A stretch of DNA of 64,000 nucleotides from the NCBI GenBank assembly GCA_904397815.1, contig CAJFOT010000128.1, forward strand, positions 6,027-70,026, in the 5' to 3' direction. The stretch is from Candidatus Paralachnospira sangeri. Its GTDB lineage: Bacteria; Bacillota; Clostridia; Lachnospirales; Lachnospiraceae. The notes below the pieces were generated by a model, which ran no database searches, was not told where the DNA came from, and saw only the letters and a list, made by a program, of their open reading frames with translations. The stretch's first letter is position 1, and the number at the start of each line of letters is the position of its first letter. Below, piece by piece: positions 9,232 through 16,297 of this stretch. Made by a program: the position numbers and the translations under genes.

Positions 9232-10224
9232 TTACTGTCTGCTGCTGTGTCCGCCGAATACGTCAAAGGTCATGGAATCCAGCCGGGAGTCGATGGCCGC
9301 GATTTCTTCCTTCGTCAGCAGGATATCGGCTGCCTCCAGGTTTTCCTTCAGCCGTTCCGGTTTCCTTGAGCCGGGGATCGGGATGATATAAGGCTTCTTG
9401 TTTAGCATCCATGCCAGGGAAATCTGGCTGACAGCGGCATGCTTTTTTTCTGCCAGCTGATCCAGCAGTTCCAGCAGCGCCTTTCCCTTTTCATAGCCGT
9501 CTTCCGTATACTGGGGCATATCCGCCCGGTAATCCTGGCTTCCCTCAAATTGGGTCTGGGGGGTATACTTTCCGGTCAGGAACCCGTTGGCCAGCGGTGA
9601 AAAAGCCACATAGGCCACATCCAGCTCTTCGCACACCGGGAAAAGATTTTCATGCCATCTGGCCATCATCGAATACCGGTTCTGAATTGCGGTTACAGGG
9701 CATACCTGATTTGCCCTTCTCAGATATTCCTCCATTGCCTCGGAGATTCCCCAGCTGCGTATTTTTCCCTCTCTGATCAGCCGGGACATCACTTCTGCCA
9801 CTGTCTCCGGCTCCACCTTCGGGTCGATCCGGTGCTGATAATAAAGGTCTATGTAATCCGTTCCCAGTTTTCTCAGACTTTCTTCCACACTGGAGCGGAT
9901 CGTTTCCGGACGGCTGTCCAGACGCAGACTCCGGTCCTCGTTATGCTGCACGCCCATCTTGGTGGCAATCACCACATGCTGACGCACATCTTTCAGCGCT
10001 TCGCCGACGAGAATCTCATTATAAGAAATAGTACCGTCCGGATAAATTCCTGTGTATACCTCTGCAGTGTCGAAAAAATTGTAACCCATTTCATATGCTT
10101 CCCGGATAACCCTGACAGCTGTCTGATGATCGGTGGGATCCCCTGACGCATGGCTGAATCCCATGCAGCCCAGGCCTACAGGACTGACAGACAGCCCGCT
10201 GTTTCCTAATCTTCTTTTTTCCAT
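9232..10224 (-). CDS. Aldo/keto reductase
   Basis: 330 aa. MEKRRLGNSGLSVSPVGLGCMGF...FFDTAEVY...HRIDP are classical AKR motifs. Confidence 0.9.
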   Translation of the reverse strand: MEKRRLGNSGLSVSPVGLGCMGFSHASGDPTDHQTAVRVIREAYEMGYNFFDTAEVYTGIYPDGTISYNEILVGEALKDVRQHVVIATKMGVQHNEDRSLRLDSRPETIRSSVEESLRKLGTDYIDLYYQHRIDPKVEPETVAEVMSRLIREGKIRSWGISEAMEEYLRRANQVCPVTAIQNRYSMMARWHENLFPVCEELDVAYVAFSPLANGFLTGKYTPQTQFEGSQDYRADMPQYTEDGYEKGKALLELLDQLAEKKHAAVSQISLAWMLNKKPYIIPIPGSRKPERLKENLEAADILLTKEEIAAIDSRLDSMTFDVFGGHSSRQ

Positions 10225-10499
10225 GATGGAATTACCTCCTTGAATGTTTTGGCTTCATTATAATAAAGAAATAAATACGCCAGAAGTTTCCATTTGGAAG
10301 GAGGTATATACCTTTGGGTATACAGTAAAAAATGTAAAATGGAAAATGAAAAATTTTACATTGTCTTTACTGAGTTTTGACAAAATACCCATTTCTTTTA
10401 TGTAGAATTTACGGTACAAATGAATGTATCAATACATTGGGATCATTTTACACAGACAGAAGGATTTTAAGGACTGAGGCAGGAATATTTTTTTTCCTG

Positions 10500-10530
10500 C
10501 CCCGGTTTTTATTATAAAGGATCCGTATTC
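10500..10530 (+). promoter_or_regulatory. Candidate sigma-I-type promoter P1 upstream of sigI
   Basis: CCCC (10500-10503), 20 nt, then CGTATTCT (10524-10531). The same motif recurs at 12236 and 12334. The 8-bp palindrome ggcaggaa/ttcctgcc (10478-10501) overlaps the C-tract. Confidence 0.5.
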
Positions 10531-10552
10531 TATGCTATGGAGGATTGAAGCT

Positions 10553-11281
10553 ATGCAGAAGGAGCATCAGATCGTAAAAGAGGTCTATGCGGCGAAGAAA
10601 GACGCGCAGAAGGCAGATGAGCTGATCCGCGCCTATATTCCCTACATACGTTCTGAAACGTCAAAATGTATTTCCCGCCTCTGCACAGAGCAGGATGATG
10701 AGTTCAGCATCGGTATGATTGCGTTCCATGAGGCAATACTGGGATATGAAAAAGAGAAGGGCGCGTTTTTAAGCTACGCTGCCATGGTGATCCGGAGCCG
10801 CCTGATTGATTTTCAGCGCCGGGAAGCCCGGCACAGGGGGCATCTCTCCCTGAATGAGGCGCAGAACGATGAAGAGCGCACACTGATGGAGGAGCTGGCA
10901 GATGACAGAGATCATTATGAGGAATCTGTCAATCGGGAGGCAACCAGACAGGAGATTGCAGAACTGTCCGCCGTGATGAAGAACTTCGGCGTCACCTTTT
11001 CTGATGTGGCGGATAATTCGCCGAAGCAGCAGAGAACGCTGGAGGCCTGCCGCGCGGCAATCTGCTACGCCGCTGAAAACGCAGAGCTTCTCCGTGAGCT
11101 GCTGCAGACCGGAAAGCTGCCGATGGCGCAGCTGGTCCGGGGCTCCGGCGCAGAACGGAAAACTCTGGAACGCCACAGGAAATATATTCTGGCCATGCTG
11201 CTGATTCAGACCAATGGATATGAGATCATCCGCGGACATCTGCGGCACGTCCTGAAAGGGAAAGGAGGGTTGCCGGCATGA
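10553..11281 (+). CDS. sigI: RNA polymerase sigma factor SigI
   Basis: DDEFSIGMIAFHEAI, NSPKQQ, RKTLERHRKYILAM and TNGY match the B. subtilis SigI signature blocks. I chose the ATG at 10553 (GGAGG 9 nt upstream) over the track start at 10532. The stop overlaps the next gene's start (ATGA). Confidence 0.9.
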   Translation: MQKEHQIVKEVYAAKKDAQKADELIRAYIPYIRSETSKCISRLCTEQDDEFSIGMIAFHEAILGYEKEKGAFLSYAAMVIRSRLIDFQRREARHRGHLSLNEAQNDEERTLMEELADDRDHYEESVNREATRQEIAELSAVMKNFGVTFSDVADNSPKQQRTLEACRAAICYAAENAELLRELLQTGKLPMAQLVRGSGAERKTLERHRKYILAMLLIQTNGYEIIRGHLRHVLKGKGGLPA

Positions 11282-12204
11282 AATATGTGGTGATGGAATG
11301 CTGCCTGAGTTATGCGGTGGTTCTGGACGAAGAAGGCAGATTCCTTAAGGTGGCCAACATGCACTATGAGGTTGGGCAGACCGTAACAGATGTAATTGAG
11401 ATGCAGACTTCCGGCCAGACATCAGCCGGGAAGCAGAAAAAGATAAGAAAATGGATTTATTCGGCGGCGGCGGCCGCGGCGTGCCTGATCCTGGTGTTTA
11501 CCGCGTTATTCCGGACAGAACAGACGCCTTACGCTTCTGTATATATTACCATCAACCCGGAGGTGCGTGTAGATATAGACCAGAATGATACAGTTATCGG
11601 ACTGGAAGGGGTAAATGAGGATGGAAAGCAGCTGGTGGATGGGTACAGCTACCGGAAGAAGCAGCTGGATCTGGTGATGGATGAGCTGGTGGACAGAGCG
11701 ATTGAGATGGGATATCTCTATGAGGGCGGCCAGATTACGCTGACGCTGGACGCGGAAGATGATGAATGGATCGTCAGCCACAGTGAATCTCTGACAAGCC
11801 GGCTGAATGAACATTTGAGAGAGAAGATGAGCGTCACCATCGAGATCCGAGATACAAAAACGGAGAGCCATGAAATCATTATTCCTGTCACGCCGGCAGC
11901 GGAAACGTATCAGTCCTCTGACTACGGAGAAACACAGACACAGGAAAGCAGCGCTTCGCAGACAGCGCCTGAGACCAGTGCCCCGCAGACAGCGCCGCCG
12001 ACCGCAGCTCCGGAACCGGCAGACGGAGACAGCGGTTATGGTGAAGAAGCGGCTGAAGACGGCCAGTCCGCTTATGCGGAACCGAATGACGGCAGCGGAT
12101 CAGACTATGACGATGACGGGGATGACGATGGGGATGACGACAGCGATGATAACGATGATGACGGCGAAGATGGGGATGACGGCGACGATGACGATGATGA
12201 ATAA
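11278..12204 (+). CDS. rsgI: Anti-sigma-I factor RsgI: N-terminal RsgI_N domain, one TM helix, a juxtamembrane domain with an Asn-Pro motif, and an acidic disordered tail
   Basis: MKYVVMECCLSYAVVLDEEGRFLKVANMHYEVGQTV resembles the RsgI N-domain. The TM helix is WIYSAAAAAACLILVFTALF. ITINPEVRVD carries Asn93-Pro94 at 11554-11559. The tail is Ser/Thr/Pro/Ala-rich and ends in DDDGDDDGDDDSDDNDDDGEDGDDGDDDDDE. Confidence 0.85.
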   Translation: MKYVVMECCLSYAVVLDEEGRFLKVANMHYEVGQTVTDVIEMQTSGQTSAGKQKKIRKWIYSAAAAAACLILVFTALFRTEQTPYASVYITINPEVRVDIDQNDTVIGLEGVNEDGKQLVDGYSYRKKQLDLVMDELVDRAIEMGYLYEGGQITLTLDAEDDEWIVSHSESLTSRLNEHLREKMSVTIEIRDTKTESHEIIIPVTPAAETYQSSDYGETQTQESSASQTAPETSAPQTAPPTAAPEPADGDSGYGEEAAEDGQSAYAEPNDGSGSDYDDDGDDDGDDDSDDNDDDGEDGDDGDDDDDE

Positions 12205-12235
12205 AAATAGTAACACAAAAAAATATTTCCGGCGA

Positions 12236-12266
12236 CCCCATTTTTGAAAGAACAGCTCCGTATTCT
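12236..12266 (+). promoter_or_regulatory. Candidate sigma-I-type promoter P2
   Basis: An A-tract, then CCCC (12236-12239), 19 nt, then CGTATTCTGT (12259-12268). Confidence 0.5.
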
Positions 12267-12333
12267 GTAAATGTAACGAGAGGAAAGGACAGACAAGGGC
12301 TTCAAAAAAAGAAAAATAAAAAATATGGTTCCA

Positions 12334-12364
12334 CCCCACTTTTACAAAAGGGCATGCGTAATCT
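12334..12364 (+). promoter_or_regulatory. Candidate sigma-I-type promoter P3
   Basis: An A-tract, then CCCC (12334-12337), 19 nt, then CGTAATCTGT (12357-12366), about 85 nt upstream of the ATG at 12446. Confidence 0.5.
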
Positions 12365-12445
12365 GTATATGAAAGATGAAAAAGAAGCCCTTGAGAATCT
12401 CAGAGAGAATATGAAAATATTACAAAATATTGGAGGAAGATCAGT

Positions 12446-13507
12446 ATGAAAAAAATGAAAGAATTCAGAATGAAGGAAATGGCAGCAGAAAACAGAATCG
12501 GAAAAATGACGAAGTCTCTTCTGACAGCAGGCGCGGTACTGGCGTTAAGCCTTTCCTGTCTGGCGGGATGCGGACAGAATCCTGGCAGCGCAGGAACAGC
12601 AGCAGGCACACAAGCAGCAGTCAGCACAGAGACGGCAGCAGGCACAGAACTGTCGGCCGGAGGGGTACTGTTCCTGAGTGTGAATCCTGAGATCGCGATT
12701 ACCTATGATGAAAATGGAAATGTCACCAAGGTGGAGTCCCGCAACGATGAAGGAGCGAAGATATTAGAAAATTATACAGGATATGAAGGGAAAGCTACCC
12801 GCGAGGTTGTGACGGAACTGGTAACCGCAATCGGAGAAGCCGGTTATTTCGTGGAAGAGATTGAAGGCGAGGCCCGCCAGATCACCATCGAGATCGAGGC
12901 CGGCTCCACACTCCCCAATGACACCTTTCTGGATGAGGTGGCGGCAGATGTCCGCAACTGCGTAAACAGCCACGACTGGCACAGCCCGCTGGATATTCAG
13001 GGTGAGAGCGATTACGGCATGACAGAATATGACGACACGGACTACGGCCCGAATAATGACGGCGTGACTGATTATGACGACACGGACTATGGCCCGAACA
13101 ACGATGGTGTGACTGATTATGATGACACGGATTATGGTCCGAATAACGACGGCGTAACCGACTACAGCGAGACAGCAGCGACAACAACAGCAACAACAGC
13201 AGCAACAACAGCAGCAGCAACAACAGCAGCGGCAGTCTATGATGATACCGACTACGGCCCGAACAATGACGGCGTGACCGATTATGACGATACCGATTAC
13301 GGTCCGAACAACGACGGCGTGACCAACTATGACGACACGGATTACGGCCCGAACAACGACGGCGTGACCAATTATGACGATACCGACTACGGTCCGAACA
13401 ATGACGGCGTGACCGACTACAGTGACAGCGGGGATTCCAATTATGACGACGGAGGCAGCAATTATGATGCCGATGGAGAAGACGGCGACAGCGGATATGA
13501 TGATTAA
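12446..13507 (+). CDS. Secreted lipoprotein with an RsgI-ectodomain-like domain, seven 15-aa acidic repeats and an acidic tail
   Basis: The signal peptide plus lipobox is LSCLAGC. LSVNPEIAITYDENGNVTKVESRNDEGAKIL...ELVTAIGEAGY parallels RsgI residues about 88-160. The repeat YDDTDYGPNNDGVT(D/N) occurs seven times. The RBS GGAGG lies 9 nt upstream. Confidence 0.85.
   Translation: MKKMKEFRMKEMAAENRIGKMTKSLLTAGAVLALSLSCLAGCGQNPGSAGTAAGTQAAVSTETAAGTELSAGGVLFLSVNPEIAITYDENGNVTKVESRNDEGAKILENYTGYEGKATREVVTELVTAIGEAGYFVEEIEGEARQITIEIEAGSTLPNDTFLDEVAADVRNCVNSHDWHSPLDIQGESDYGMTEYDDTDYGPNNDGVTDYDDTDYGPNNDGVTDYDDTDYGPNNDGVTDYSETAATTTATTAATTAAATTAAAVYDDTDYGPNNDGVTDYDDTDYGPNNDGVTNYDDTDYGPNNDGVTNYDDTDYGPNNDGVTDYSDSGDSNYDDGGSNYDADGEDGDSGYDD
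13028..13417 (+). repeat. In-frame 45-nt tandem repeats in two blocks (3 units at 13028-13162, 4 units at 13238-13417), separated by a 75-nt segment (13163-13237) that is mostly an (ACA/GCA)n Thr/Ala linker
   Basis: The units encode YDDTDYGPNNDGVT plus D or N. The peptides are identical while the units differ at synonymous sites (for example ggcccgaataatgacggcgtg, ggcccgaacaacgatggtgtg and ggtccgaataacgacggcgta). Confidence 0.95.
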
Positions 13508-14198
13508 GGCGGAGAAGAAACCGCTCCGACTGCGGCATGAACGGAAACATGTGATAAACCCTCAGGATGACCTGGAATTGTCCGGACGCCTGCGCAGACT
13601 GTTCTCCCATGACAAACACGCTGACTCACACGGGATCTACCGTGTGAGCAGCCTGTACTTTGATACGCCCTATGACAAGGCGCTCCGGCAGAAAGCGGAC
13701 GGCGTGGACCGCAGAGAAAAATTCCGGCTCAGGTTTTACAATGGAGACACTTCCTTTATCCGTCTGGAGAAAAAAATCAAGATGAATGGTCTGTGCGGGA
13801 AATACAGCGCCCGGCTGACGGCCGGGCAGACAGAACTGCTGCTGAAAGGAGAACTGGATTTTCTGAAAAACAGCGGCGATCCTCTTTTGCTGGAACTCTA
13901 CAGCAAAATGCAGGGGCAGCTCCTTGCGCCGAAAACTATTGTGACGTATGACCGGGAGGCTTTCCTGTACGGCCCCGGAAATGTAAGGATTACGATAGAC
14001 CGGAACCTGCGTACCGGCCTGGGCAGCACTGATTTTCTGAACCCGGAACTGTTTCATGTCGGTGTTTCGGACGGCATGGCGGTTTTAGAAGTCAAGTATG
14101 ATCAGTTTCTGCCGGAGCTGGTCAGAATGGCGGTTCAGACACCCAACCGGCAGACGGCCCCCTTTTCCAAATATGCGGTCTGCCGGAAATACGACTGA
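13497..14198 (+). CDS. VTC-domain (triphosphate-tunnel, polyphosphate-polymerase-like) protein
   Basis: YRVSSLYFDTPYDKALRQKADGVDRREKFRLRFY... is typical of bacterial VTC/TTM domain proteins. I chose the ATG at 13497, which overlaps the upstream stop by 11 nt. The track ORF starts further upstream inside the lipoprotein gene. Confidence 0.8.
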   Translation: MMIKAEKKPLRLRHERKHVINPQDDLELSGRLRRLFSHDKHADSHGIYRVSSLYFDTPYDKALRQKADGVDRREKFRLRFYNGDTSFIRLEKKIKMNGLCGKYSARLTAGQTELLLKGELDFLKNSGDPLLLELYSKMQGQLLAPKTIVTYDREAFLYGPGNVRITIDRNLRTGLGSTDFLNPELFHVGVSDGMAVLEVKYDQFLPELVRMAVQTPNRQTAPFSKYAVCRKYD

Positions 14199-14216: not shown

Positions 14217-14888
14217 ATGACGTTTCAGAATATTTTTCAATCTTCCTTTTTGGAAAACGTGTCGGCGATTCCGCCCTTCGATATGGCGCTGGCGCTGATT
14301 CTGGCCTTTCTGACCGGCCTGTTCATATTTTTTGTGTATAAAAAGACCTATGCCGGCGTGATGTATTCAGCCACCTTCGGCATCAGCCTGATTGCCCTCT
14401 GCATGATCACGGCGCTGCTGATCCTGGCGGTGACCAGCAATATCGTTCTTTCTCTGGGAATGGTGGGCGCCCTCTCGATCGTCCGGTTCCGGACGGCGGT
14501 GAAGGAACCCTTCGATATTGTGTTTCTGTTCTGGGCTATCGCGGCGGGGATTGTACTGGCTTCCGGTTTTATTCCGCTGGCAGTTCTGGGCAGTATGCTG
14601 ATTGGTCTGGTTCTGATGGTTTTTTCCCGGTATAAGGGATTTGAAAAGCCCTATATTCTGGTGCTTCACTGTGAGAATGATGAGACAGAGAAGGCTGCTT
14701 TTTCCTTTCTGGACGGAAAGGCAGGGAGGATCTGCCTGAAAAGCAAGAGTGTGGCGCCCGGCTGTATTGAGCTGCATTATGAAGTGCGCCTGAAGGACGG
14801 GGATACGGATTTTATCAATCAGCTGTCCCAGCTGCCCGGTGTGTCCCACATTGTGATGGTGTCCTACAATGGCGATTATATGAGCTGA
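14217..14888 (+). CDS. DUF4956-family membrane protein
   Basis: 223 aa with 4-5 TM helices and then a soluble C-terminal domain of about 70 aa. It occupies the characteristic neighbourhood between VTC and CotH genes. The RBS AGGAGG is present. Confidence 0.75.
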   Translation: MTFQNIFQSSFLENVSAIPPFDMALALILAFLTGLFIFFVYKKTYAGVMYSATFGISLIALCMITALLILAVTSNIVLSLGMVGALSIVRFRTAVKEPFDIVFLFWAIAAGIVLASGFIPLAVLGSMLIGLVLMVFSRYKGFEKPYILVLHCENDETEKAAFSFLDGKAGRICLKSKSVAPGCIELHYEVRLKDGDTDFINQLSQLPGVSHIVMVSYNGDYMS

Positions 14889-16297
14889 TGCCTATGATGA
14901 GATCCCGATATATTGACATGATCTGTATTCTGGGCGCTGCCGCGGCCCTGACGCTGACAGTTCTCTTTATGAATGGCGAGAAACTGGGGCTAACGCCCGC
15001 ATCCTCGATTCCCGGATATGAGACGCGGCTTTTCGACCCGTCGAGGGTACATACCATTGACATAATCATAGAGGACTGGGAGGGGTTTCTGGACAGCGCG
15101 CCGGAAGAGGAATACAGTCCGTGTACACTGATTATCGACGGAGAAGCCTTTTCCAATGTGGCATTGCGGGCGAAGGGAAATAATTCCCGGCGGCTGACAG
15201 AGGAATACGGACTGGACCGGTACAGCCTGAAGGTGGAATTCGACCATTATACTTACAGCAGCTACTATGGCCTGGATAAGTTTTCCCTGGACGCATCTTT
15301 TCAGGACAACAGTTATATGAAAACCTGGATTGCCTATGACATGATGGCGTATATGGGAGTTCCCACACCCCTGTGCAGCTATGTGTGGGTGCGGGTGAAC
15401 GGAGAGGACTGGGGGCTGTTTCTGGCGGTGGAGGAGCCGGAGGAGGCATTTGCCAGGAGAAACTTCGGAAAGGATTACGGGCAGCTGTATAAGCCGGATT
15501 ACAGGTCTCTGAATGATGAAAACGCGGATGTAGCTCTCCGCTATACGGATGATGATATCGACAGCTATGACAATATATTCCGCAACGCAAAATTTAACCC
15601 GTCCGACGGGGATAAGAGAGCGCTGATCGGGGCGCTGAAAACCCTTTCCTCCGGTGAAAATCTGGAATCCGCGGTGAATGTGGATGAGGTGCTGAGATAT
15701 TTTACGGTGCAGGTTTTTGTGGTAAATCTGGACAGCTATCTGGGGCGCACCGGACATAACTATTTTCTGTATGAAGAGGATGGGCGGATCAGCATCCTGC
15801 CCTGGGATTATAATCTGGCCTTTGCCACCTATTCTCTGGGGATGCCTGACCCGGTCAATGATTCCACCCTATATGTCAATTATCCCATTAACACGCCGGC
15901 TGCCGGAGAGGTGATGCTGAACCGTCCCCTCTACCATAATCTGATGAAGCACGATGAATATTTCGCCCGGTATCACGCGTATTTCGACCAGCTGATCGGG
16001 GGATATTTCGAGAGCGGATATTTTGAGGATTTTATAGATCAGACGCTGGAAATGATCCGCCCCTGGGCGGAGAAAGACCCGACAGCTTTCTGCTCTTATG
16101 AGGACTTTCTCCTGGGAGTGGATACTATAAAGGAATTTTGTCTGCTGCGGGCAGAGAGTGTGAGAGGACAGCTGGATGGAGAGATCCCTTCCACAATCAG
16201 AGGGCAGACGGAAGACAGCAGTTCCTTCGTGAATGCCTCCTCTGTATGGCTGCCGGATATGGGTGAGATCGCGGATCTGGAGGACGGTGTCCGCTGA
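14888..16297 (+). CDS. cotH: CotH-family atypical protein kinase, membrane-anchored and extracytoplasmic
   Basis: 469 aa. The N-terminal anchor is MICILGAAAALTLTVLF. The conserved CotH core is GHNYFLYEEDGRISILPWDYNLAF. The start overlaps the DUF4956 stop (TGATG). Confidence 0.85.
   Translation: MPMMRSRYIDMICILGAAAALTLTVLFMNGEKLGLTPASSIPGYETRLFDPSRVHTIDIIIEDWEGFLDSAPEEEYSPCTLIIDGEAFSNVALRAKGNNSRRLTEEYGLDRYSLKVEFDHYTYSSYYGLDKFSLDASFQDNSYMKTWIAYDMMAYMGVPTPLCSYVWVRVNGEDWGLFLAVEEPEEAFARRNFGKDYGQLYKPDYRSLNDENADVALRYTDDDIDSYDNIFRNAKFNPSDGDKRALIGALKTLSSGENLESAVNVDEVLRYFTVQVFVVNLDSYLGRTGHNYFLYEEDGRISILPWDYNLAFATYSLGMPDPVNDSTLYVNYPINTPAAGEVMLNRPLYHNLMKHDEYFARYHAYFDQLIGGYFESGYFEDFIDQTLEMIRPWAEKDPTAFCSYEDFLLGVDTIKEFCLLRAESVRGQLDGEIPSTIRGQTEDSSSFVNASSVWLPDMGEIADLEDGVR

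Follow-up and report, generated by a model that had tools for sequence, protein, structure and literature searches.

Two tandem sigma-I-type promoter motifs precede a lipoprotein-VTC-DUF4956-CotH operon next to sigI-rsgI in Candidatus Paralachnospira sangeri

Introduction

Which RNA polymerase reads the DNA between rsgI and the lipoprotein gene that follows it in Candidatus Paralachnospira sangeri, and why does this short region carry the same long motif twice? We addressed this question in a 64-kb stretch of contig CAJFOT010000128.1 (Lachnospiraceae; assembly GCA_904397815.1), the whole of which is called the window below. An initial annotation had described two tandem copies of a sigma-I-type motif, P2 and P3, upstream of a four-gene unit encoding a lipoprotein, a VTC-domain protein, a DUF4956 protein and a CotH protein, and a third copy, P1, upstream of sigI. 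We consider it highly probable that P1, P2 and P3 serve as promoters for RNA polymerase carrying the locally encoded SigI, and the lipoprotein-VTC-DUF4956-CotH operon is very probably a dedicated SigI target; both SigI dependence and the transcription starts are inferred from sequence comparison.

Sigma-I promoters combine a specificity region with an A-tract, which is essential, and a CGWA element (PMC6056542). The published consensus is CCCYYAAA-N13-14-CGWA for sigma-I3 of C. thermocellum, CNNAAA-N13-14-CGAA for sigma-I6 of the same organism, and ACCCCC--AA-N15-CGAA----T for Bacillales sigma-I (PMC4711584). In open-complex structures, the CGWA element occupies positions C-14 G-13 W-12 A-11, and SigI6 residue His171 enters the minor groove of the A-tract; substitution of His171 by Asn, Ser or Ala abolished activity, and the base after CGWA tunes promoter strength in SigI6 (PMC10575876). 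The Asn-Pro autocleavage motif of RsgI has been described (PMC10328401, PMC10556640), and it is established for B. subtilis and C. thermocellum that loss of the autocleaved RsgI ectodomain leads to intramembrane proteolysis and so to the release of SigI (PMC10556640, PMC10328401).

Results

Three copies of one composite motif in the window

A scan of both strands of the window for the composite pattern CCCC-N19/20-CGTAWTCT returned exactly three matches, P1, P2 and P3, versus 0.04 expected, and none of 100 shuffled windows reached three. All three lie on the plus strand. P1 (10482..10533, upstream of sigI) comprises an A/T tract at 10482-10491, CCCC at 10500-10503, a T-tract at 10506-10510 and, after a 20-nt spacer, CGTATTCTAT at 10524-10533. 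P2, the distal copy (12218..12268), comprises the A/T tract AAAAAATATT at 12218-12227, CGA plus CCCC at 12233-12239 (CCCC at 12236-12239), a T-tract at 12241-12245 and, after a 19-nt spacer, CGTATTCTGT at 12259-12268. P3, the proximal copy (12316..12366), lies 98 nt downstream of P2 and comprises an A-tract at 12316-12325, CCCC at 12334-12337, a T-tract at 12340-12343, a 19-nt spacer and CGTAATCTGT at 12357-12366. The loose core CCCC-N17-22-CGWA is not enriched in the window (8 found versus 18 expected), indicating that the signal resides in the full composite motif.

The 138 orthologous sites of other genomes, with the window sites left out, yield a weight matrix that separates the three copies from the rest of the window. 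Specifically, P2, P3 and P1 score 53.8, 42.1 and 33.8 bits, with P2 the top position of the window. The best position outside these three in the 64 kb scores -0.8 bits, and random sequence reaches a maximum of 3.2 +/- 4.1. A re-read of positions 9800-12800 agrees with the letters and positions given for the three copies in the initial annotation, and the gap in matrix score (34-54 bits for P1-P3 versus at most -0.8 elsewhere) bears out its statement that the window holds no further copy.

The A-tracts noted upstream of each copy likewise stand, as part of an A6-T4 tract conserved in the orthologues, but the AATAT element proposed with them does not. AATAT is the A-to-T junction of that tract, and its register varies, the distance to CCCC being 11, 9 and 7 nt in P1, P2 and P3. 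The remark that no sigma-A pair is obvious in this region also essentially holds. The only candidate, a weak 9/12 match at 12391-12418, is at chance level (8 such matches found versus 6.7 expected in the region) and is absent from relatives.

The genes adjoining the motifs encode a full-length SigI and RsgI

The gene downstream of P1, sigI (10553..11281, plus strand), was identified by NCBIfam SigI models and by alignment to PDB 8i24/8i23. In particular, residues 15-229 of the product align to C. thermocellum SigI6 and SigI1 (PDB 8i24 and 8i23, E 1.5e-23 and 2.9e-21), and the C-terminal domain alone aligns to PDB 6ivu. The protein has the build expected of a SigI, with a sigma-2-like N-terminal domain and a SigI-C domain in place of sigma-4. 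Its start is likely ATG 10553, with GGAGG at 10539-10543, and not ATG 10532, the mechanical start of the open reading frame, which is disfavoured because the -10 element of P1 would then fall within the gene.

The next gene, rsgI (11278..12204, plus strand), encodes a protein with the architecture of an RsgI: an RsgI_N domain, one transmembrane helix (WIYSAAAAAACLILVFTALF), a SEAL/RsgI_M domain with an Asn-Pro motif (ITINPEV), from which cleavage is predicted, and a disordered tail with an Asp-rich end. The RsgI_M match is well above the Pfam cut-off (E 5e-23); the RsgI_N match (E 8e-5, 22.8 bits) is slightly below the 25-bit gathering cut-off and is the weaker domain call. The C-terminal tail is extremely Asp-rich (DDDGDDDGDDDSDDNDDDGEDGDDGDDDDDE) and is encoded by a GAT/GAC-rich imperfect repeat at 12093-12201. 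This RsgI is without a carbohydrate-binding module, and a polysaccharide signal bound in the manner of C. thermocellum is therefore unlikely. Profile matches and structure-based alignment thus agree that the adjoining genes are a full-length SigI and an RsgI, and there is no second sigI/rsgI pair in the 64-kb window.

The motif is conserved with the gene set across Bacillota families

Starting from more than 1180 homologues of the lipoprotein, we scanned one genome per species and obtained 80 loci (L001-L080) from Lachnospiraceae, Oscillospiraceae, Erysipelotrichaceae, Peptostreptococcaceae, Anaerovoracaceae and others. The full sigI-rsgI-lipoprotein-VTC-DUF4956-CotH set is present in about 70 of the 80 (tblastn), and a few lack VTC and DUF4956. 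Cultured bacteria with the cluster include Allofournierella massiliensis DSM 100451, Sellimonas caecigallum JCM 35759, Claveliimonas monacensis DSM 108991, Traorella massiliensis and Clostridium sp. MCC353. The pattern CCCC-N19/20-CGTA lies upstream of the lipoprotein gene in 75/80 loci on the first pass and in 78/80 after re-inspection; L040, L051 and L060 do carry a site, their start-codon estimate having been off. L007 has two sites directly after rsgI, and L014 has none. In the 78 loci, CCCC of the proximal site is positioned 54-151 nt, mostly about 65-115 nt, upstream of the lipoprotein start codon. The motif also lies upstream of sigI in 60/72 loci, always in the orientation of the gene. 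Over 860 kb, both strands included, the hits divide into 101 ahead of the lipoprotein gene, 61 ahead of sigI and 18 at other places, and four of these 18 are misclassified promoter sites. Most sites have the N19 spacer, and a minority, P1 among them, have N20. Phylogenetic footprinting, which the initial annotation had suggested as a check, thus finds the motif conserved, correctly oriented and at a fixed distance before both the lipoprotein operon and sigI in some 80 genomes from several Bacillota families.

Rearranged loci follow the same rule. In Mediterraneibacter, Sellimonas and Claveliimonas, sigI-rsgI is inverted and divergent from the lipoprotein operon (L013, L030, L032, L033, L035, L036, L043 and L052), and the shared intergenic region carries one motif per strand, the sigI copy on the minus strand and the lipoprotein copy on the plus strand. 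L014 (Lachnospiraceae; L014:5500-6010) has lipoprotein and CotH genes without VTC and DUF4956 and without sigI-rsgI within 6 kb. Its upstream region lacks the motif and carries a sigma-A-type TTCAAC-N16-TGATATAAT in its stead, and the locus serves as a natural control.

An unbiased scan of a metagenome collection for CCCCGGTTTT-N13-CGTAATCT addressed how specific the motif is, and the first 120 matches were classified. Among these 120 matches listed, 99 lie directly before a lipoprotein homologue, 7 lie before sigI, 5 are cut by the contig end on contigs that carry sigI (4/5 also rsgI), 7 are chance-like, within open reading frames or without promoter context, and 2 are promoter-like before other genes. 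In sum, 111 of the 120 exact matches listed fall in a sigI or lipoprotein context, which is not the chance-frequency, context-free occurrence that the initial annotation had named as fatal to its call. The motif thus hardly occurs outside this gene context, and its regulon appears to be small and local. The two promoter-like matches before other genes comprise a full motif before a secreted protein with a signal peptide (L157:13155-13300) and one before an unknown protein (L193:292-420); these genes are possibly extra regulon members in some organisms.

Anatomy of the sites and predicted transcription starts

Conservation profiles of 87 non-redundant lipoprotein-gene sites and 50 sigI sites extend well beyond the search pattern. 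The conserved positions comprise C-G-A right before CCCC, G-N-TTTT after it, a T two bases before CGTA, and W-T-C-T-R-T after CGTA. A C-rich specificity region is evident, with A at -1 of CCCC in 69/87 lipoprotein-gene sites and 46/50 sigI sites. The distance from the tract to CGWA is 13 nt after TTTT (14 after TTT), within the published range of 13-14 nt, and CGTA stands at the place of CGWA in P1, P2 and P3. Distal sites tend to CGTAT, as sigI promoters do, while proximal sites tend to CGTAA. Between -18 and -9, counted from the first C, lipoprotein promoters further contain a strong A6-T4 tract, with a weaker A-rich patch one helical turn upstream; the A6-T4 tract is much stronger at lipoprotein-operon than at sigI promoters, and we infer that it could act as an UP-like element.

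With the C-14 G-13 W-12 A-11 numbering of the sigma-I structures (PMC10575876), +1 is placed 11 nt after the A, which predicts starts at about 10538 for P1, at G12273 for P2 and at G12371 for P3. The predicted +1 is a purine in about 85% of the orthologous lipoprotein-gene sites, and a conserved GTAAG begins there. In sigI promoters, the Shine-Dalgarno sequence lies at a fixed distance after the predicted +1. Specifically, the sigI leader from P1 would be about 15 nt long, with the Shine-Dalgarno sequence at the extreme 5' end of the mRNA, and the same geometry of Shine-Dalgarno sequence and start is common to the 50 orthologous sigI promoters. sigI has the arrangement expected of an autoregulated gene, the CCCC-to-CGTA block of P1 (10500-10533) lying before sigI and orthologous copies likewise.

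A terminator-like hairpin, GGCAGGAA...TTCCTGCC followed by CCGGTTTTT, is present at 10478-10510 and extends over the upstream half of P1. Possibly it arises by chance from the P1 T-tract; the aldo/keto reductase neighbour is divergent, and there is therefore no plus-strand gene upstream of P1 to terminate.

Fit to known sigma-I promoters

The geometry of the motif matches that of published sigma-I promoters (PMC4711584, PMC6056542, PMC10575876), in agreement with the type originally assigned. The closest likeness is to C. thermocellum sigma-I3 (PMC4711584, PMC6056542), with which the window motif shares the CCC-NN-TTT-N14-CGTA geometry (a C-triad, two bases, an AT tract and 13-14 nt), a preference for CGTA over CGAA, and a copy before the cognate sigI-rsgI operon. 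It differs in that its non-template strand has a T-tract where sigma-I3 promoters have an A-tract, and in that it adds CGA before CCCC, WTCTRT after CGTA and a strong UP-like A6T4; in addition, the regulon is an envelope operon in the window, whereas it consists of cellulosomal enzymes in C. thermocellum. With Bacillales sigma-I (sigI, bcrC, mreBH, lytE), the window motif shares an A plus C-run -35 element, 19 nt from the last four C to CGWA, and autoregulation. The build of RsgI is also B. subtilis-like, with RsgI_N, transmembrane helix, SEAL, disordered tail and no carbohydrate-binding module. In contrast to Bacillales sigma-I, the window has CGTA and not CGAA as -10 element, TTTT for AA after the C-run, and other target genes.

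Several observations weigh against a straightforward assignment. First, the tract is not an A-tract: P1-P3 have a T-tract, as do about 94% (80-82/87) of the orthologous lipoprotein-gene sites. Second, the tract-reading helix alpha-9 of SigI6, K170-H171-R172-x-S174, is not retained in the window SigI, which has K-Q-Q-R-T; the corresponding segment reads PKQQRT (encoded at 11016-11030) versus PKHRDS in C. thermocellum SigI6/SigI1. Third, the NCBIfam SigI models match at E 2e-53, below their curated cut-offs. Fourth, CCCC and CGTA served as search anchors, so their invariance across orthologues is circular, and the independent evidence is that of flanking positions, placement and orientation. Finally, some 75-80% of the related loci have a single promoter before the lipoprotein gene, indicating that the system as such can do without the second copy.

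The first two departures occur throughout the family. P[KR]Q[EQ]RT is found in 73/73 orthologues, so that the His171 position is Gln without exception, and this Gln goes together with promoters whose tract is T or of either polarity. At about 12 orthologous sigI promoters, an A-tract occupies this place while the lipoprotein promoter paired with them has a T-tract. Nine genomes or more (among them L010, L021, L022, L044, L050, L057, L068, L076 and L079) combine a sigI promoter reading CCCCG(G)AAAAT with a lipoprotein promoter reading CCCCGGTTTT. One sigma factor thus appears to accept either tract polarity, which fits a read-out of minor-groove shape. On these comparisons, the window system would work as a sigma-I promoter, but as a variant of the characterised kind.

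Doubling of the proposed promoter

The doubling of the promoter recurs among relatives. Ahead of the proximal site, a further complete one is present in about 17 of the 80 genome loci (L001, L006, L007, L009, L012, L015, L016 with three copies, L023, L026, L027, L031, L034, L037/38, L054/55, L064, L076 and L079), at a spacing of 66-140 nt. In the metagenome, a second site is found in 13 of 70 non-redundant loci, 64-168 nt and mostly 64-72 nt upstream. By chance, about 0.002 second sites per locus would be expected from the background rate of the pattern. The doubled promoter of the initial annotation is supported for the window, but it is not a universal feature of the family. The spacings include a group of 64-72 nt and one of 81-140 nt. 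The spacing between promoters is never below about 64 nt, a minimum that would fit two independent, non-overlapping polymerase-binding sites. Helical phasing of the two sites was considered and rejected, there being no 10.5-nt periodicity among spacings of 64-140 nt.

The alternative that best survives is that only P3 works and that P2 is a decaying or neutral copy left by tandem duplication of a promoter cassette. The predominance of single-site loci is compatible with it, and cassettes do duplicate: L016 (L016:2446-3800) has about 1 kb inserted between rsgI and the lipoprotein gene, with three promoter copies, namely two near-identical 139-nt tandem promoter cassettes and a third site. L016 is a recent promoter duplication in progress and shows the probable origin of doubling. 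Decay is also seen, one of the two sites of L053 having CGGA for CGTA. In the window, however, P2 outscores P3 on the orthologue matrix, and the two copies are identical at 38/50 constrained and 13/48 unconstrained positions, the latter no more than the 30% that composition predicts. This chance-level identity excludes a recent tandem duplication as the source of P2 and P3, and likeness confined to constrained positions indicates that both are held by selection on the motif and have been retained through long divergence. Furthermore, about 17 diverged loci still have a distal copy in which every invariant position, the UP-like tract and the conserved GTAAG at +1 are intact. We therefore regard a silent P2 as improbable, with roughly one chance in eight left to it, and favour two working promoters.

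A further alternative, slightly less probable still, is that P2 mainly makes a regulatory 5' RNA that controls the operon through a 5' hairpin or through a helix between AAGGGCTTC (12295-12303) and GAAGCCCTT (12384-12392). These two arms form an inverted repeat on the plus strand that brackets P3 and would be present only in transcripts begun upstream of P3. The octamer AGGGCTTC is complementary to GAAGCCCT about 90 nt downstream, and both are kept in about 10 of 13 aligned doubled loci. In addition, the distal leaders of L006, L007, L012, L015, L023, L026 and L037 carry a GTAAGG-loop-CCTTAC hairpin exactly at the predicted +1, with some compensatory changes and with pairing that survives insertions (L006, L012, L015); such a hairpin could be a 5' stabiliser. 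Against a regulatory RNA, the 5' hairpin is degenerate in the window itself and in L001, the inverted-repeat pair, conserved in sequence in about 10 of those 13 loci, has no covariation and no significant predicted fold, and there is no terminator or U-run between P2 and P3. An Rfam scan of 10200-12700 (E <= 1) gave only a spurious snoRNA match and no known riboswitch or leader, the 13 doubled loci share no consensus structure according to RNAalifold, and the P2 leader of the window folds no better than its shuffles (z -0.78). The 5' ends of proximal leaders have a modest tendency to structure (mean z -0.86, from sequences that are not independent). An explanation of the doubled region by RNA structure is thus unsupported by Rfam, RNAalifold and shuffling. 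As a separate observation, a third AGGGCTTC-like copy often lies within the spacer of the proximal promoter, the pair being seen in L006, L007, L009, L012, L015, L023, L026 and L037.

Two promoters for SigI also remain preferable to sites read by an extracytoplasmic function (ECF) sigma factor encoded elsewhere, which we judge very unlikely. PMC6056542, citing Gaballa et al. 2018, describes a T-tract after the -35 element as an ECF-type feature, and ECF promoters (PMC6056542, PMC10575876) resemble the window sites in where this T-tract stands and in having a -10 element of CGT type. But the window sites have no AAC-type -35 element, their CCCC-N19-CGWA geometry is that of sigma-I, as are the bubble and the -10 numbering according to the published structures, and the window factor has a SigI-C domain and not sigma-4. 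Moreover, more than 70 genomes carry the motif together with sigI-rsgI, its copy before sigI is a signature of autoregulation, and the motif is gone in L014, where sigI is missing. Hardly credible, finally, is that the motif is an operator for a DNA-binding regulator, with transcription from sigma-A promoters or by read-through from sigI-rsgI: read-through is possible in the absence of a predicted terminator after rsgI, and a weak sigma-70-like match exists at 12391-12418, but that match is chance-level and not conserved, the motif is asymmetric, with two blocks at promoter spacing oriented strictly with the downstream gene, and the predicted +1 falls at a conserved purine and at a fixed distance from the sigI Shine-Dalgarno sequence.

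The proposed target operon

The four genes downstream of P3 are all on the plus strand and tightly packed, with gaps that are small or nil. The first (12446..13507) encodes a lipoprotein with a lipobox (LAGC), a SEAL/RsgI_M domain with an Asn-Pro motif (SVNPEIA; Pfam RsgI_M, E 4.5e-13) and seven YDDTDYGPNNDGVTD repeats. It is followed by genes for a cytoplasmic, polyphosphate polymerase-like VTC-domain protein (13422..14198; Pfam VTC, E 5e-37), the true start of which is probably an ATG near 13470-13500, for a polytopic DUF4956 membrane protein (14217..14888; Pfam DUF4956, E 1.2e-9) and for a CotH kinase-like protein with an N-terminal membrane anchor (14888..16297; Pfam CotH, E 1.7e-59), the last gene. 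The lipoprotein, DUF4956 and CotH products are thus membrane-associated or envelope-facing, while the VTC protein is cytoplasmic. A search of a plasmid collection with the operon gave no match.

The lipoprotein is a paralogue of the anti-sigma ectodomain that is predicted to be under the control of the sigma factor, and it could be a feedback or co-sensor element. Its seven acidic repeats may be calcium-binding loops, which they resemble.

Conserved synteny, the placement of the motif, its near exclusivity in the metagenome and its sigma-I geometry together support the proposal that this four-gene unit is the local SigI regulon.

Discussion

We propose the following mechanism. RsgI, a membrane-borne anti-sigma factor whose SEAL domain is of the self-cleaving type and whose ectodomain is acidic and disordered, would hold SigI at the membrane. 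An envelope signal would strip the ectodomain, leading to intramembrane cleavage and the release of SigI. Free SigI would fire P1, giving positive feedback on sigI-rsgI, and would fire P2 and P3, both of which read into lipoprotein-VTC-DUF4956-CotH. As separate promoters of the same specificity, P2 and P3 would most likely be additive, raising effector output over regulator output, and would yield two mRNA isoforms with lipoprotein leaders of about 173 nt (from P2) and about 75 nt (from P3). No terminator is predicted after rsgI and none lies between P2 and P3, so that the effector operon can receive transcripts from P1, P2 and P3.

Sigma-I promoters and RsgI signalling are already known; the link of SigI to the VTC-DUF4956-CotH module that the locus suggests would be new. 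In C. perfringens, the gene list of the necrotic-enteritis locus NELoc-2 comprises sigI, a 348-aa cell-wall protein, VTC, a membrane protein and CotH, and is given with no interpretation (PMC2879425). A trio of cotH, polyphosphate polymerase and DUF4956 has been noted beside pel operons (PMC7112168), and VTC, DUF4956 and CotH travel together in streptococci, clostridia and bifidobacteria (PMC7112168, PMC2879425). Compared by published gene lists only, NELoc-2 and the pel-linked modules share their gene set with the window operon, but neither paper describes a promoter or a SigI link, and the pel-linked modules have no adjacent sigI-rsgI. In C. thermocellum, cseP, which encodes a CotH-dockerin protein, is sigma-I6-dependent. 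Apart from these gene lists and cseP, we found no link in the literature between SigI and VTC, DUF4956 or this CotH module.

Taken together, the observations allow a broader reading, which we advance tentatively and hold at somewhat below even chances: that the locus represents an undescribed, widespread sigma-I/RsgI clade of gut and rumen Clostridia, with a Gln tract reader that accepts either polarity and with lipoprotein-VTC-DUF4956-CotH as essentially its sole regulon. If this is true, a mechanosensing RsgI pathway would switch a putative envelope system that makes polyphosphate and/or phosphorylates proteins, the NELoc-2 gene set of C. perfringens would fall under the same reading, and promoter duplication would be a recurrent evolutionary way to raise effector over regulator output.

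The T-tract or either-polarity promoter, combined with the invariant His-to-Gln exchange, offers a natural test of the model in which SigI-C reads the minor groove, and doubled versus single-promoter relatives offer a clean system for asking in what way the number of promoter copies sets the effector-to-regulator ratio. For the widespread, uncharacterised VTC-DUF4956-CotH module, a dedicated SigI/RsgI switch would be the first regulatory handle, and the link of this module to SigI points to a role in the cell envelope.

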